Assembly (NCBI GenBank): GCA_964535095.1
Contig: CAZHSU010000001.1
Span: 1-28,944 of the forward strand
Direction of reading: 5' to 3'
DNA: 28,944 nucleotides
DNA from: an uncultured Candidatus Saccharibacteria bacterium
Lineage (GTDB): Bacteria > Patescibacteriota > Dojkabacteria > SC72
The notes beneath the pieces are model-generated. The model was not told where the DNA came from. It searched no databases and saw only the letters and a list, made by a program, of their open reading frames with translations. Shown here in pieces: positions 2,892 to 19,288 of this stretch. The position numbers and the translations under genes are program-made. Position 1 is the stretch's first letter. Every line of letters begins with the position of its first letter.

Positions 2892-3986
2892 CTAAGGTCT
2901 TAACTGCTCCCAAAGTTCTTTTTCTGCTCTGCTTAGTCTCCTTGGGATTTCAATACGAACTCTTACATAATGATCTCCCCTCTCCTTAGGAGAATTGAGT
3001 AATGGTGCTCCCTTACCCTTTAATTTGAAGATTGTACCTGGTTGTGTACCCTTAGGAATTTTCAATTTCACTTCTTCAAAAATTGTTTCAACCTTAACAA
3101 CATCTCCTAGAACAGCAGATGATACTGGAATCTCCAAATCTGTATAGATATTATTCCCTCTTCTTTCAAACTTAGGAGATGCCTCGACATTAACCTCTAT
3201 ATACAAATCCCCTGTTGCTCCACCATTCTTACCTGCATTACCACCTCCTCTAAATCTCAAAATCATGCCCTCATATGCTCCTGCTGGAACCTTAATACTA
3301 ATATCTTCTTCCACATACTTAAGACCACTCCCTTCACACTTACTACATGGGTCCTCTATAACAGAACCTGTGCCTCCACAATTCTGACATACTCCCATAA
3401 TTGCAATCTGTCCAAAGACCGTATTTCTCACTTGTTGACTCTGTCCAGTTCCCTTACATACAGGACACACTTTTTTCTTGCCAGATTCACTTCCTGAGCC
3501 TTTACATTTATCACATCTGTCTTCTTTCCTCACCTTTAGCTTAAAATCTCCACCTTTCATAGCTTCTTCAAAACTCAAGCTAATCCTATATCTAATATCT
3601 GAACCTGTATTATCCACCTGTCTGCCTTCTCCACCAAAGTCAAAACCACCTCCCATACCACCTGGCATACCTCCTCCAAAGAAGGTATTGAAAATATCTC
3701 CCATATCAAAGGGAGCTCCACCATTAAAATCCGTGTATCCACCAGAAGAACCTGGGTTAAAACCTGCTGTTCCAGCATGTCCAAATTGGTCGTAAGCAGA
3801 CCTCTTAGAATCATCGGAAAGCACCTCATATGCCTCTTGCACCTCCTTAAATTTCTCCTCAGCATCAGCCTCCTTATTCACATCAGGATGATATTTCTTT
3901 ACCAATTTTCTATATGCTTTTTTAATATCTGAAGCAGAGGATTTTTTATCAACCCCCAAAACTTCATAATAATCTCTTTTTTCCAT
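2892..3986 (-). CDS. dnaJ: Molecular chaperone DnaJ
   Basis: J-domain with HPD, G/F-rich linker, four CxxCxGxG zinc-finger repeats ([32 protein letters not shown]), C-terminal substrate domain. Confidence 0.98.
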
Positions 3987-3994
3987 AGCGAGTC

Positions 3995-4003
3995 ATTTTA
4001 GCA
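3995..4003 (-). promoter_or_regulatory. Extended -10 element of dnaJ (near-leaderless)
   Basis: Minus strand TG-C-TAAAAT followed by 8 nt and the dnaJ ATG. Confidence 0.6.
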
Positions 4004-4024
4004 GAACTCCCTCCCAATTGCTAG
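3998..4024. promoter_or_regulatory. CIRCE-like (HrcA operator) inverted repeat
   Basis: TTAGCAGAA-N9-AATTGCTAG. It has the 9-9-9 geometry of TTAGCACTC-N9-GAGTGCTAA with the outer TAGCA/TGCTA arms intact and the inner triplets diverged. Lies 11 nt upstream of a heat-shock gene. Confidence 0.6.
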
Positions 4025-4035
4025 CCCCTCCACCA

Positions 4036-4239
4036 ACCTGGTCGGAGTATTTTGATTGATACAACAAACCTACTCATACATATCCACAGTTTTTTTAATA
4101 CACTAGAAGATATAAAAAATTGCAATCAAAATTAGAAATGCTTTTGCGATACAATATCCATTTCCCTATAATAATGTTAAAATACCATGAAAAGCTACAA
4201 TTATGCCAGTCCCAATAAGCATTTCTAAGCCGACCAGGT
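4036..4239. other. 204-nt element of three nested perfect inverted repeats (three-way junction); candidate structured ncRNA or miniature element
   Basis: ACCTGGTCGG 4036-4045 / CCGACCAGGT 4230-4239; TTTTGATTG 4050-4058 / CAATCAAAA 4123-4131; TTAGAAATGCTT 4132-4143 / AAGCATTTCTAA 4217-4228. The pairing is directly visible; the function is unknown. Confidence 0.6.
4144..4172 (+). promoter_or_regulatory. Candidate sigma70 promoter inside the structured element
   Basis: TTGCGA-17 nt-TATAAT. Confidence 0.45.
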
Positions 4240-4243
4240 CTGT

Positions 4244-4278: not shown

Positions 4279-5067
4279 ATGGAAAATCCATGGAATATTG
4301 AAACAGAAAACACAAAAAAGATAAAAAATACAAGAATCGTAATCTCTGTGGTGCTTGCTTTTGCAGGATTAGGAATAATTGCTAGTCAAGTAATACCATT
4401 AGTTAAGTCATATATAGATGGTGAAATAATGCAGATGCGAGGGGAAATTAAGGTAGAGCCCGTACCAGAGTCATACAAGAAATTCATTGAAAATGAATTC
4501 GCATACTATGACCCTGGTGGTAGTTATTTTTCCAACCTCGCCAAACAACTCGGCGTCCTAGGAATCTCCTCATATGCAAGCGAAAATGCAGGGTACAAAA
4601 CAAGCAAAATAGACACCTCATATGACAAAAATATGTACATAACAATAGATAGTGTTGGGATTAAAAATATTAAAATTTCTGCAAATGTAGAAAGCAAAGA
4701 TGAAGAGGTATACAACAAATTTCTCAAATCTGGAGTTGCACACTTTAGAGGTACCCCACTCCCCGGAGATGGTGGAAACTCATTCATATACGGACATAGT
4801 GCGGTAGAAGCCTTTTTCAGCAGACACAAAGACTATCCAGAAACAATTTTTTCGAGGCTAGACAATATAGATGTAGGACAAAAAATCCAGATACAAAAAG
4901 ATGGTGAGATTCTAGAATATGTTGTCCGAAACAAGAAAATTGTAGAGCCAACAGATTTCACAATACTCCAACCAATTCAAGACAAAGAGAATGTAACTCT
5001 CATGACATGTTGGCCACTTGGAATTGGTACAAAAAGGCTAATTGTCGTAGCAGAGAGAAAGATTTAA
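4279..5067 (+). CDS. Sortase family transpeptidase
   Basis: N-terminal TM helix; catalytic His (FIYGHS), TLMTC and Arg (TKRLIV) in sortase order. Confidence 0.92.
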   Translation: MENPWNIETENTKKIKNTRIVISVVLAFAGLGIIASQVIPLVKSYIDGEIMQMRGEIKVEPVPESYKKFIENEFAYYDPGGSYFSNLAKQLGVLGISSYASENAGYKTSKIDTSYDKNMYITIDSVGIKNIKISANVESKDEEVYNKFLKSGVAHFRGTPLPGDGGNSFIYGHSAVEAFFSRHKDYPETIFSRLDNIDVGQKIQIQKDGEILEYVVRNKKIVEPTDFTILQPIQDKENVTLMTCWPLGIGTKRLIVVAERKI

Positions 5068-6529: not shown

Positions 6530-9154
6530 GTGATGCCCAAGAAAATTAGAAGCAAAAAATCAAGACAAACATTAGTGATTATTACCAGCCTCTTTCTTGT
6601 GCTTGCATTACCTCTAGCAGTATACAATCTTCAACGGGGATCTTTTGATATGAGAAACCAAGCATACGATATGCTTGAACTAAGTGAAAAGAATCCATGT
6701 ATTATTTCTTTCCCTAGTGTAAATCCATATTCATTAGAAGTTGGGAAGAGTGTTCGTGTACAGGTAGATGCAAAATTCACCAATGCAGGAATAAAGAAAC
6801 TAGACATTTCAGATTCAACAGGAAGAAATATATATACCGAAGAGTTCGATGAAACCCCATTGCAAATGGGGACAAGTTTCATTCTCACACCTGAACAAGA
6901 TGGTCCTGTCGATATCCTCGGCTTAATTGAAAAAACAGATGGAGCAAATGCAGGATGTAAAATTAGCAGCCCATATGATGTAAAGGGCTTAAGAGCAATT
7001 GCAAATAACAGCTCTCCAGAGTTTACTACCAACCCTACACAATCTAAGCCTTCTCAAGATATAAAAACAGGTACACCTTATGAATACAAACTATCCGCCC
7101 ACGATACTGACGGTGATAGAATTAACTATTCATATTCATTTACTCCGAAAGCAGATTGGCTCAAAGCCGTTGTCATTGAAGATGGCTCAAATGGAAAGTT
7201 ATCTCTTGTATTTAAAGGAGATACAGATATGCCCGCAAGCTATTTAGCAAATATCATTATTCATGATGGATACAGTAAAAATGTCAGATCCCAATCTTGG
7301 GTAATAAGTGTAGGACAAAGTGAAAATGACATGCCGAAAGTAAGAGTTCTTAGACCAGAGGATTCTTTGAGACTAGATGCTGGAAGCAATTTTAATACAG
7401 CATGGGAAGTTTCAGATCTTAACCATATTTCTATGTTTGAACTTTTCATGGCAAGAAATGTTGCAGATCAAAGTAGTTGGAAAAAGATAGGTGAAGATCT
7501 TCCATATAATATGCTTGGTTCCTCTGTTTCTACAGAAGATTTAGATTCTGGTACATACAAATTAGTTGTAAGAGCAACAGATAATCAAGATCCTCCCAAA
7601 TCTGGATTTGGAGTATCACCGGAAATTGTCCTTTCTAAACTTTCTGACAATACTCCCCCAAGTGATGATGTCGTGATATTACCAGAACCACAGATTGTTA
7701 ATATGTCGCCATCTGCAGAAGATGTTGTTTCAAATCCTAGAGCAACCATTAAAGGTACTTTAGTAGCAGGAGAAGGAGAAGAAATTAATGAGAACTCAAT
7801 TGTATTCAAGGTAGATGATAAAGATGTTACAGACAAGATGAAAATCAATGAGATCTCACATAGTGAGTATACATTAATCTATCAACCTACTGAGGATTTA
7901 GAAGATGGGAATCACAAGGGAGAGATTAGCTTTGAGGATTCTTCTGGGAAATCTGTTGTAAAGACATGGGATTTCAAGATAAATTCTTCAGCAAATACAG
8001 GTGCTGTATTTAATATCTTCGGGATGGAGATTGCTCAGAGAACTGTATTTATCGTTGGAATTGGGATTCTACTTGTCATTATTGCAGCTTGTGCTCCACT
8101 CCTAATTGCAGCAATCTGGGGAAGAGGGAAGCAGGAGAATAAAGAAACAACATATATGACTAGGAATACACCAGCAAGCATAGAACCTGCGAATTTAAAC
8201 TTTACTCCCCCTCCAGAGGAATCTTATGTAAGAAAAATGGTGGAGGCAGAGGTTACTAAACCATATGTTAATATTGACCCAATGGCTACTACAATTATAG
8301 AAGAGCCTGTTGTTCAAGACACCCCTACTGAGACAGAGATTTATACAAGTCTCCCAGAGATTGTGATTGATGAACCAGAAGTGAAGATTGAGGAAAACAT
8401 AGAGGATATTAACCAACCAATATTTGTTGAAGATCCTAAACCTTACATTGAGAAACAGGAGGAAGTAAAAATAGAAGAACTACCTACACTTGAAGAGGTA
8501 AAACCAGAAGAGCCTGTCTCCGCATTCTATTCAACAACACCTACAGAGCCTATTACAGAGGCTCAAGAGCCAACCATAACACCCTCACAAGAGCCAATAA
8601 TACAAGACCAGCCAGTTGTAGAAGAAATAAAAACAGAGGAACCCATTTCCGCATTCTATTCAACAACAACACCTACAGAGCCTATCACAGAGGCTCAAGA
8701 GCCAACTATAACATCCTCACAAGAGCTAATTATGCAAGCCCCACCAGTTGTAGAAGAAACAAAAGCAGAAGAACCAATATCTGCATTCTACTCAACAACT
8801 CCTCCAACAAAGCCCATTACAGGGGCTGAAGAGCCAACTATAACACCCCTACAACAGCCTATTATACAAGCCCAACCAGTTGTAGGAGAGACAAAAACAG
8901 AAGAACCTGTTTCTGCATTCTACCCAACAACACCTTCAACAGAACCCATTACAGGAGCTCAAGAACCAACTCCTCCACCAACCACCCAACAGCAACAGGA
9001 AGCCGTCATACCAGTACAACCTGCACAACCAATACAAAATGAAGAAAACACAGAAGAAATAATAGAGCCTGAAGCTCCAGATCCATCAGCATTCTTGAAA
9101 ATAGCACAACAAATAGAAGAACAAACATCACAAGAAAATAGTACTAATCTCTAG
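6530..9154 (+). CDS. Large two-TM surface protein with Ig/cadherin-like domains and a Pro/Glu/Thr-rich repeat tail
   Basis: TM1 near residue 15-33. Beta-sandwich units (NSSPEFTT...YEYKLSAHDTDGD; YKLVVRATDNQDPP; PQIVNMSP...LEDGNHKGEISFED). TM2 VFIVGIGILLVIIAACAPLLIAAIW, then about 340 aa of low-complexity tail. Start GTG 6530 or ATG 6533. Confidence 0.8.
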   Translation: MMPKKIRSKKSRQTLVIITSLFLVLALPLAVYNLQRGSFDMRNQAYDMLELSEKNPCIISFPSVNPYSLEVGKSVRVQVDAKFTNAGIKKLDISDSTGRNIYTEEFDETPLQMGTSFILTPEQDGPVDILGLIEKTDGANAGCKISSPYDVKGLRAIANNSSPEFTTNPTQSKPSQDIKTGTPYEYKLSAHDTDGDRINYSYSFTPKADWLKAVVIEDGSNGKLSLVFKGDTDMPASYLANIIIHDGYSKNVRSQSWVISVGQSENDMPKVRVLRPEDSLRLDAGSNFNTAWEVSDLNHISMFELFMARNVADQSSWKKIGEDLPYNMLGSSVSTEDLDSGTYKLVVRATDNQDPPKSGFGVSPEIVLSKLSDNTPPSDDVVILPEPQIVNMSPSAEDVVSNPRATIKGTLVAGEGEEINENSIVFKVDDKDVTDKMKINEISHSEYTLIYQPTEDLEDGNHKGEISFEDSSGKSVVKTWDFKINSSANTGAVFNIFGMEIAQRTVFIVGIGILLVIIAACAPLLIAAIWGRGKQENKETTYMTRNTPASIEPANLNFTPPPEESYVRKMVEAEVTKPYVNIDPMATTIIEEPVVQDTPTETEIYTSLPEIVIDEPEVKIEENIEDINQPIFVEDPKPYIEKQEEVKIEELPTLEEVKPEEPVSAFYSTTPTEPITEAQEPTITPSQEPIIQDQPVVEEIKTEEPISAFYSTTTPTEPITEAQEPTITSSQELIMQAPPVVEETKAEEPISAFYSTTPPTKPITGAEEPTITPLQQPIIQAQPVVGETKTEEPVSAFYPTTPSTEPITGAQEPTPPPTTQQQQEAVIPVQPAQPIQNEENTEEIIEPEAPDPSAFLKIAQQIEEQTSQENSTNL
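8501..8971 (+). repeat. Intragenic tandem repeat of 129-132 nt (43-44 aa), about 3.6 copies
   Basis: Units start at 8501, 8630, 8762 and 8894: K(P/T/A)EEP(V/I)SAFY(S/P)TT..T(E/K)PIT(E/G)A(Q/E)EPT... Confidence 0.95.
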
Positions 9155-18980: not shown

Positions 18981-19217
18981 CATAGGGTCTCTCCTAGATC
19001 TGTCCCTCAAAAAGATACAACTATTCGCATTGTACTAAGGTTTCCTAACCCACAGCATCGTTAACTTTCTTCTTTTTCTCAACTTTTTTCAGAAGCAACC
19101 ACACAGGGTCCGTCCCAGATCTGACCCTCAAAAAGGTCCAACTATTCGCATTGTACTAAGGTTTCCTAATCCACAGCATCATTAACTTTCTTCTTTTTAT
19201 CAACTTTTTTCAGAAGC
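18981..19217. repeat. Tandem direct duplication, period 121 nt (two 116-nt copies)
   Basis: 18981-19096 vs 19102-19217; hand alignment gives 10 mismatches in 116 nt, 7 of them in the first 37 nt. Confidence 0.95.
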
Positions 19218-19288
19218 CACAAAGCCAAATATCCTATTAAACAGGCAGAAAGGGTTGGAAAACAGGGGTCAGATCTGGGACAGACCCC
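19105..19288. repeat. Inverted pair of REP-like GC-rich palindromes (third, decayed copy at 18984-19007)
   Basis: AGGGTCCGTCCCAGATCTGACCCT (19105-19128) and AGGGGTCAGATCTGGGACAGACCCC (19264-19288) are reverse complements over the GGGTCYGTCCCAGATCTGACCC core. Each folds with GGGTC/GACCC arms. Confidence 0.85.

Follow-up and report, generated by a model that had tools for sequence, protein, structure and literature searches.

The locus and its Y-shaped element

The window, meaning the whole 28,944-nt stretch of DNA that was analysed, belongs to an assembly of Candidatus Dojkabacteria, a member of the CPR (G000; 497 kb in 72 contigs, 70% complete). Among named relatives, Candidatus Dojkabacteria bacterium UBA5232 is the closest, and the species is found in manure, bioreactor and wastewater metagenomes. 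Near one end of the window, dnaJ and a sortase gene flank a 204-nt element made of three helices (P1, P2 and P3) and a few further landmarks:

2892-3986, minus strand: dnaJ, flanking the element
4033-4242, plus strand: whole element, in which a left and a right arm form a gene-less dimer; the outer bases of the terminal mini-palindrome AC-NN-ACCWGGT-NN-GT are counted in
4036-4045, plus strand: P1 5' strand, the left terminal inverted repeat ACCTGGTCGG; 10 bp, perfect with 4230-4239
4050-4058, plus strand: P2 5' strand, in the self-folded left arm; 9 bp, perfect with 4123-4131
4090-4109, plus strand: left inner core, degenerate; remnant of a TTTAA..TTATCGG module, aligning with the left cores of the C48 copy and the long C4 copy
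4123-4131, plus strand: P2 3' strand, partner of 4050-4058
4132-4143, plus strand: P3 5' strand, in the self-folded right arm; 12 bp, perfect with 4217-4228
4144-4172, plus strand: promoter-like site TTGCGA-17-TATAAT in the loop enclosed by P3, directed toward the sortase gene; a consensus match only (10 of 12 sigma-70-like positions)
4164-4194, plus strand: right inner core CCCTATAATAATGTTAAAA...GAAAAG; no other module of the family is as well conserved, and it has 86-91% matches on six other contigs of the genome
4217-4228, plus strand: P3 3' strand, partner of 4132-4143
4230-4239, plus strand: P1 3' strand, the right terminal inverted repeat CCGACCAGGT, partner of 4036-4045
4279-5067, plus strand: sortase gene, flanking the element

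The first-pass annotation had described three perfect helices separated by junctions of 4, 0 and 1 nt, lying between dnaJ and the sortase gene, with a plus-strand promoter consensus inside P3. Direct reading of the sequence bears out the position, the junctions and the perfect complementarity of every helix, and the promoter-like site matches the consensus at 10 of 12 positions. RNAfold, which had been proposed as a check with shuffled controls, returns the same Y shape for both strands. The folding energy is -40.9 kcal/mol on the plus strand (z -4.87) and -52.8 kcal/mol on the minus strand (z -3.36), and for either strand none of 200 dinucleotide shuffles is as stable. The Y-shaped 204-nt structure is confirmed as real.

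Two other features of the window are worth recording. A CIRCE-like operator (TTAGCA-N15-TGCTAG) lies upstream of dnaJ at 3987-4024 and is kept in three related genomes (G016, G011 and G006); the mobile element adjoins it, just outside. Farther along, four tandem repeats of 129-132 nt (8471-8971) lie within a gene of 874 aa (6530-9154) that has no Pfam match.

A dispersed repeat family in the genome

Many dispersed copies would, according to the first-pass annotation, speak for a MITE, and such copies are found. BLAST, nhmmer and a scan for the terminal motif in the G000 assembly define a family of about 17 loci on 14 contigs, namely nine doublets and about eight single arms. Six doublets are short, quasi-palindromic copies of about 167 nt whose ends lie exactly 150 nt apart (on C2, C5, C7, C23 and, twice, C10). 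The three longer forms are the window copy, the copy on C48 and that at C4:3646-3903. C48 provides another full-length copy (69% identity over 205 nt, BLAST E 2.6e-16 in the own assembly), and the stretch 4159-4194 of the window has several strong partial BLAST matches in the same assembly. The window copy is matched by an HMM of the six 167-nt copies (nhmmer E 2.7e-10) and goes unreported by a covariance model of the same copies at E <= 0.01; its membership in the family therefore rests on nhmmer and BLAST.

Every full copy has the inverted ends ACCWGGTCGG / CCGACCWGGT, set inside a 15-nt mini-palindrome, and the copies have in common an inner inverted pair formed by the TTTAA..TTATCGG module and the CCTGTAATAATGTTAAA module. 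The short copies fold as a single long hairpin: the terminal helix measures 20 bp and shows compensatory changes, and the inner one is about 25 bp long. All six carry, in the right arm, an invariant TG-extended -10-like motif. A scan for target-site duplications at every offset, covering nine copies, found nothing consistent.

The loci are essentially all intergenic; one single arm (C39:2267-2341) apparently lies inside a long open frame (C39:1673-2797). Divergent gene pairs flank three or four of the nine full copies. The orientation of the copies relative to the neighbouring genes, or to the start of the downstream gene, is mixed and unbiased (3 of 5 in tandem contexts). A small peptide was also considered and rejected: the ATG at 4188 opens just 13 codons, its counterpart in C48 opens 5, and a C4 copy has no ATG, so that the frame is lost.

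Insertion history

Three related species of the genus (G016, G011 and G006) have dnaJ next to the sortase gene and lack the 204 nt in the spacer. The conserved flanks align to within a few bases of the element ends, in empty-site alignments that are just 70-80% identical. The copy on C2 is absent from the same three genomes. When the covariance model of the short copies is run over the genus, 8 of 23 genomes are positive, each with one to about seven loci, in differing places.

Family members also lie just downstream of dnaJ in two relatives (G016:C26:22964-23194 and G007:C21:5862-6033). G000 has its member upstream of dnaJ and none downstream. The members near dnaJ in G000 and in G016 and G007 are independent insertions around the same gene.

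On metagenome contigs the element is present in two co-occurring strains that are 5-6% apart, and in a wastewater sample. Since the two strains share it, the insertion is old and has been fixed for some time within the species. Contigs break at the element ends in runs X13 and X18; no joints of an empty site, an excision or a new insertion were seen in four metagenome runs.

Conservation of the Y shape

Five copies in four species (the window copy, C48, G016_C26, G017_C46 and G019_C1a) share P1, P2 and P3 and constitute the Y subfamily. Standard pairs fill 91.8% of their pair cells, versus 29-45% when the partner strand is slid by 1-3 columns. Double changes occur in six pairs, and none of 500 shuffles reaches the covariation score. 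They are spread over the three helices: one in P1 (G-C to T-A), one in P2 (T-A to G-C), where all cells are paired in the five copies, and those in four pairs of P3. Conservation with covariation had been named beforehand as a test of the structure, and the helices are indeed conserved, with compensatory changes, in five copies from four species. Invariant columns amount to 49 of 68 in the helices versus 46 of 158 elsewhere in the element, a comparison made on related copies and with a structure defined on one of them. Between the two co-occurring strains, 12 of 13 substitutions in the element fall outside the helices (p = 0.07). The remaining one, C4123T in the 3' strand of P2, keeps a G.T pair on the plus strand only.

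The Y-type copies differ from the long hairpins of the short copies in that each arm closes on itself, because both subterminal segments, left and right, find complements in a central insert. The inner helix that normally joins the two cores has decayed in the window copy, where the left core now pairs poorly with the right one. In another Y-type copy (L035, G019:C1:639090-639321) the inner cores are still able to pair, CTTACTATA with TATAGTAAG. Since this inner-core helix crosses P2 and P3, the L035 copy has two mutually exclusive folds.

Y1 transposase genes and their arms

Two genes of the G000 genome match the Y1_Tnp model (PF01797), both above its cut-off. The first, on C31 (C31:2293-2745), encodes a protein of 150 aa and is framed exactly by two family arms of about 85 nt, a left and a right one in inverted orientation (E 8e-7 for the left arm and 9e-6 for the right arm against the family HMM). 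Its stop codon falls inside the right inner core, the same module as 4164-4194 of the window. Because family arms bracket this gene, the short dispersed elements can be read as two arms joined head to head with the gene missing. The neighbours of the gene are adk and secY. Directly against the left arm, at its left end, stands a run of about 100 N (1264-1362 of L010, G000:C31) that disrupts adk. The repeat probably gave rise to this run as a scaffold gap, so that the G000 transposase unit lacks a complete left terminus.

The C31 protein has the HuH motif NHYHLL and a Y---NP motif (YIKENP); the second protein, of 143 aa and encoded on C24, has NHYHLL and YIRNNP. Y---NP is the signature of class-2 TnpA-Y1 proteins (Quentin et al. 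2018, PMC6006769). The two proteins are 35% identical to each other, and the only Pfam domain in either is Y1_Tnp (residues 7-116 of the 150-aa protein and 14-125 of the 143-aa protein). The only PDB relative of the C31 protein is E. coli TnpA-REP (4ER8, E 0.067). In this alignment Tyr112 of the C31 protein faces the tyrosine at position 115 of 4ER8_A, which is reported to be the catalytic residue (Messing et al. 2012). For both proteins the only NCBIfam match is REP_Tyr_transpos, at 32.2 and 65.3 bits, below the 80-bit equivalog cut-off. Public homologues are automatically annotated as 'REP element-mobilizing transposase RayT' or 'transposase [Candidatus Dojkabacteria bacterium]'. An IS200-type TnpA model gives no match at E <= 0.01; in the 70%-complete assembly there is no rve or DDE_Tnp_1 gene, nor a TnpB above the cut-off.

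The C24 gene is accompanied by repeats of its own. A separate REP-like family of 22-nt palindromes, (A/G)GGTC.G-N8-C.GACC(C/T), lies on both sides of this gene and has at least ten further dispersed copies, two of them in the window:

C24:5995-6016 and C24:6496-6517: 22-nt palindromes flanking the C24 gene
19106-19127 and 19266-19287: 22-nt palindromes of the window, within 18981-19288, beside a 121-nt tandem duplication

With the C24 gene and its palindromes besides the C31 unit, the genome therefore carries two enzyme-repeat pairs.

Transposases and repeats in related genomes

Of the 30 loci examined, 22 (12 within the genus, 10 in the family's other genera) have a C31-type gene between secY and adk; they span at least four genera. 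It is antisense to the secY-adk operon everywhere save in G016. The G016 cassette (L056, G016:C26:71332-71781) is inverted relative to those of the 21 other syntenic loci, that of G000 (L055, G000:C31) among them, as expected from recombination between inverted arms. The closer a genome's SecY is to that of G000, the closer, on the whole, is its transposase (Spearman 0.73, a rough figure from non-independent points), as vertical inheritance would have it. The G000 genome has one gene per arm type. In G016, G007, G019 and G017 the orthologues are bracketed by inverted repeats of at least 16 nt (exact; longer by eye) with ACCWGGT ends.

A second gene lineage (in G019, G017, G006 and G016:C19) is located away from secY-adk. 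The arm ends of its members in G019 and G017 are inverted repeats as well, perfect over 22 nt by eye (at least 16 nt exact), and the Y-type copies of these two genomes find their best match in the arms of this lineage. The window copy and its Y-type relatives resemble the arms of a second, 'type B' transposase lineage (G019, G017, G016) at least as well as C31 arms, and no type B transposase gene occurs in the 70%-complete G000 assembly. Dispersed copies correspond loosely to the arms of their own genome. The G000 copies fit best with the G016/G000 arm type; against such own-genome pairing, the G016 copies and some G007 copies match the G017/G019 arm type.

Other genera too have an inner core of the TTTAATATTCTATAGG / CCTATAGAATATTAAA type beside the orthologous gene, and there the core motif is also dispersed, well in excess of the controls (20 matches versus 2 in the control for G077, 10 versus 2 for G086 and 10 versus 1 for G074) and includes inverted pairs 50-70 nt apart. 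A sister repeat family in G005, G012 and G011 (L034, L036, L037, L041, L043 and L047) has different ends, GGTTACCTTCG... / ...CGAAGGTAACC, while its inner core is similar. In the same three genomes, GGTTACCTC / GAGGTAACC flank the secY-adk transposase genes.

Mobile DNA or functional RNA

Collectively, we consider it likely that the element is a non-autonomous transposable element, a gene-less arm-to-arm dimer (TIR-dimer/REPIN-like) of a RAYT/TIRYT-type Y1 HUH transposase unit. The full unit would consist of the Y1 HUH transposase gene between two inverted arms of about 85 nt. By analogy with E. coli TnpA-REP and IS200/IS605 TnpA, the enzyme would recognise the element folded as single-stranded DNA, for instance on the lagging-strand template; its HuH/Tyr centre would cut near the foot of the terminal ACCWGGT palindrome, and the piece would be rejoined elsewhere. 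Pairing in P1-P3 would be kept by selection for transposition competence and not for an RNA function, while the loops would drift. The window copy may by now be an immobile relic, because its inner helix has decayed and its closest arm type, type B, is without a transposase gene in the 70%-complete assembly.

A more ambitious proposal, to which we give a small chance, concerns a long-term, vertically inherited partnership in ultra-small CPR genomes. It would unite a RAYT-like enzyme, housed in the secY-adk part of the ribosomal super-operon, with unusually long modular structured repeats. The Y subfamily would be selected as one of two mutually exclusive folds, the inner-core hairpin versus the P2/P3 three-way junction, and would thus form an ssDNA or RNA switch that acts at the level of the host, for example by carrying a promoter or by flagging events at the replication fork.

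The first-pass annotation had left the choice between an undescribed structured ncRNA and a non-autonomous mobile element. The second alternative is upheld by the copies, the transposase arms and the empty sites; the first finds no strand or orientation bias to lean on. It is very unlikely that the element is a structured ncRNA gene or a cis-regulatory RNA, multi-copy by chance. In that case the three-way junction would be the fold in which the RNA functions, and transcription might start at the internal TATAAT and run toward the sortase operon. Such an RNA would account for a significantly stable fold on both strands, for compensatory changes in the helices of four species, for a promoter-like site (10 of 12) within the element and for the only helix substitution between the strains, a change from G-C to G.T tolerated on the plus strand only. 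Conserved pairing is nevertheless expected without any RNA role, because Y1 transposases (IS608 TnpA, E. coli TnpA-REP) act on folded single-stranded DNA. The minus strand, favoured at first for its G-U pairs, is the more stable one in the window copy (-52.8 versus -40.9 kcal/mol), but this preference does not hold across the family: by RNA and DNA folding energies in nine copies, the plus strand is better in four and the minus strand in five. Wobble pairs in the short copies lean slightly to the plus orientation, mostly through one inherited pair. Against an RNA also stand the mixed orientation of the copies relative to neighbouring genes, the empty orthologous site in related species and the presence of the same arms around a transposase gene. 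That the element belongs to no known RNA family, as first supposed, agrees with the Rfam search, which returned nothing beyond chance-level matches at E <= 10; at permissive E-values, the window copy and five other copy-bearing loci gave nothing but tRNAs, so that no Rfam family matches any tested copy. No RNA-seq runs with the window region were found.

Host domestication is very unlikely too. Here, the palindrome might, for example, bind a protein, carry a promoter or insulate the divergent dnaJ and sortase promoters from each other, and the link to the transposase would be merely historical. That the transposase has been passed on vertically at a single site in several genera, as happens in domesticated RAYT systems, points this way, as do the three or four of nine full copies located between divergent genes and the TG-extended -10-like motif that all six short copies keep in the right arm. 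However, the tandem contexts (3 of 5) reveal no orientation bias, and relatives manage with the same spacer lacking the insert. Finally, a classical MITE derived from a DDE-type insertion sequence, moved by cut-and-paste through its terminal inverted repeats, would fit inverted repeats of 10-20 bp, small size and many intergenic copies, but is highly improbable given nine copies devoid of a target-site duplication at any offset, a 70%-complete assembly without rve or DDE_Tnp_1 and a Y1 HUH transposase as the only gene between family arms.

Comparison with known systems

A dimer of this kind finds its closest counterparts in three described systems. TIRtrons, or TIRYTs, are defined by a RAYT-like gene whose long TIRs bear no relation to GTAG REPs and also occur as a repeat family, in single units and as dimers (Di Nocera et al. 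2013, PMC3733652). Likewise, the Dojkabacteria Y1 gene has long non-GTAG TIRs and a moderately abundant family of dispersed singles and dimers. Its arms differ in being modular, about 85 nt long, with a terminal ACCWGGT mini-palindrome and an inner TTTAA..TATMGG core. A GGGGWSAS motif is reported for many TIRs of TIRtrons, although not for all (PMC3733652); it is lacking in the present arms, where the nearest string is GGGGAATA, on the reverse of the right core. Most TIRYTs are assigned to TnpA-Y1 subclass 2.1, typically with a C-terminal HTH extension (PMC6006769), whereas the proteins studied here are short (150 and 143 aa) and devoid of it. Unlike in described TIRtrons, the host belongs to the CPR and one subfamily folds as a conserved three-way junction.

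In the REPIN-RAYT (REPtron) systems of Proteobacteria, a single-copy, vertically inherited Y1 transposase is likewise bracketed by inverted copies of its own repeat. Shared with these systems are extragenic singlets and hairpin-forming inverted doublets without target duplication, here in a genome with two enzyme-repeat pairs. REPs are palindromes of 20-40 nt with a 5' GT[AG]G, and REPINs measure about 70-110 nt (Nunvar 2010, PMC2817692; Bertels & Rainey 2011, PMC3116915; Ton-Hoang 2012, PMC3333891). The present family, by contrast, has no GTAG/GTGG foot; it ends in ACCWGGTCGG, its doublets cover 167-260 nt and its copies number tens instead of hundreds. With IS200/IS605 elements and PATEs it has in common Y1 HUH chemistry (predicted from protein sequence), structured ends, the lack of target duplication and gene-less derivatives. 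It departs from IS200/IS605 in that the gene is single-copy and syntenic across genera, and not multi-copy and near-identical; its ends are long inverted repeats instead of distinct left and right subterminal hairpins, and tnpB is absent.

Implications

The literature searched holds no published link of REP, REPIN or RAYT with Patescibacteria or Dojkabacteria, so that the repeat partner of the Dojkabacteria enzyme appears to be undescribed. A candidate new ncRNA is removed, and a concrete and testable transposase-repeat system takes its place. There is a warning here for annotation, as such repeats break assemblies (seen in the contigs of X13 and X18) and mimic structured RNAs. The family offers a compact model for the recognition of long modular ends by Y1 enzymes. 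For the organism itself, it means that a CPR genome of 0.5-0.8 Mb, a size at which pressure on every base is commonly assumed, maintains two transposase-repeat pairs together with tens of structured copies.
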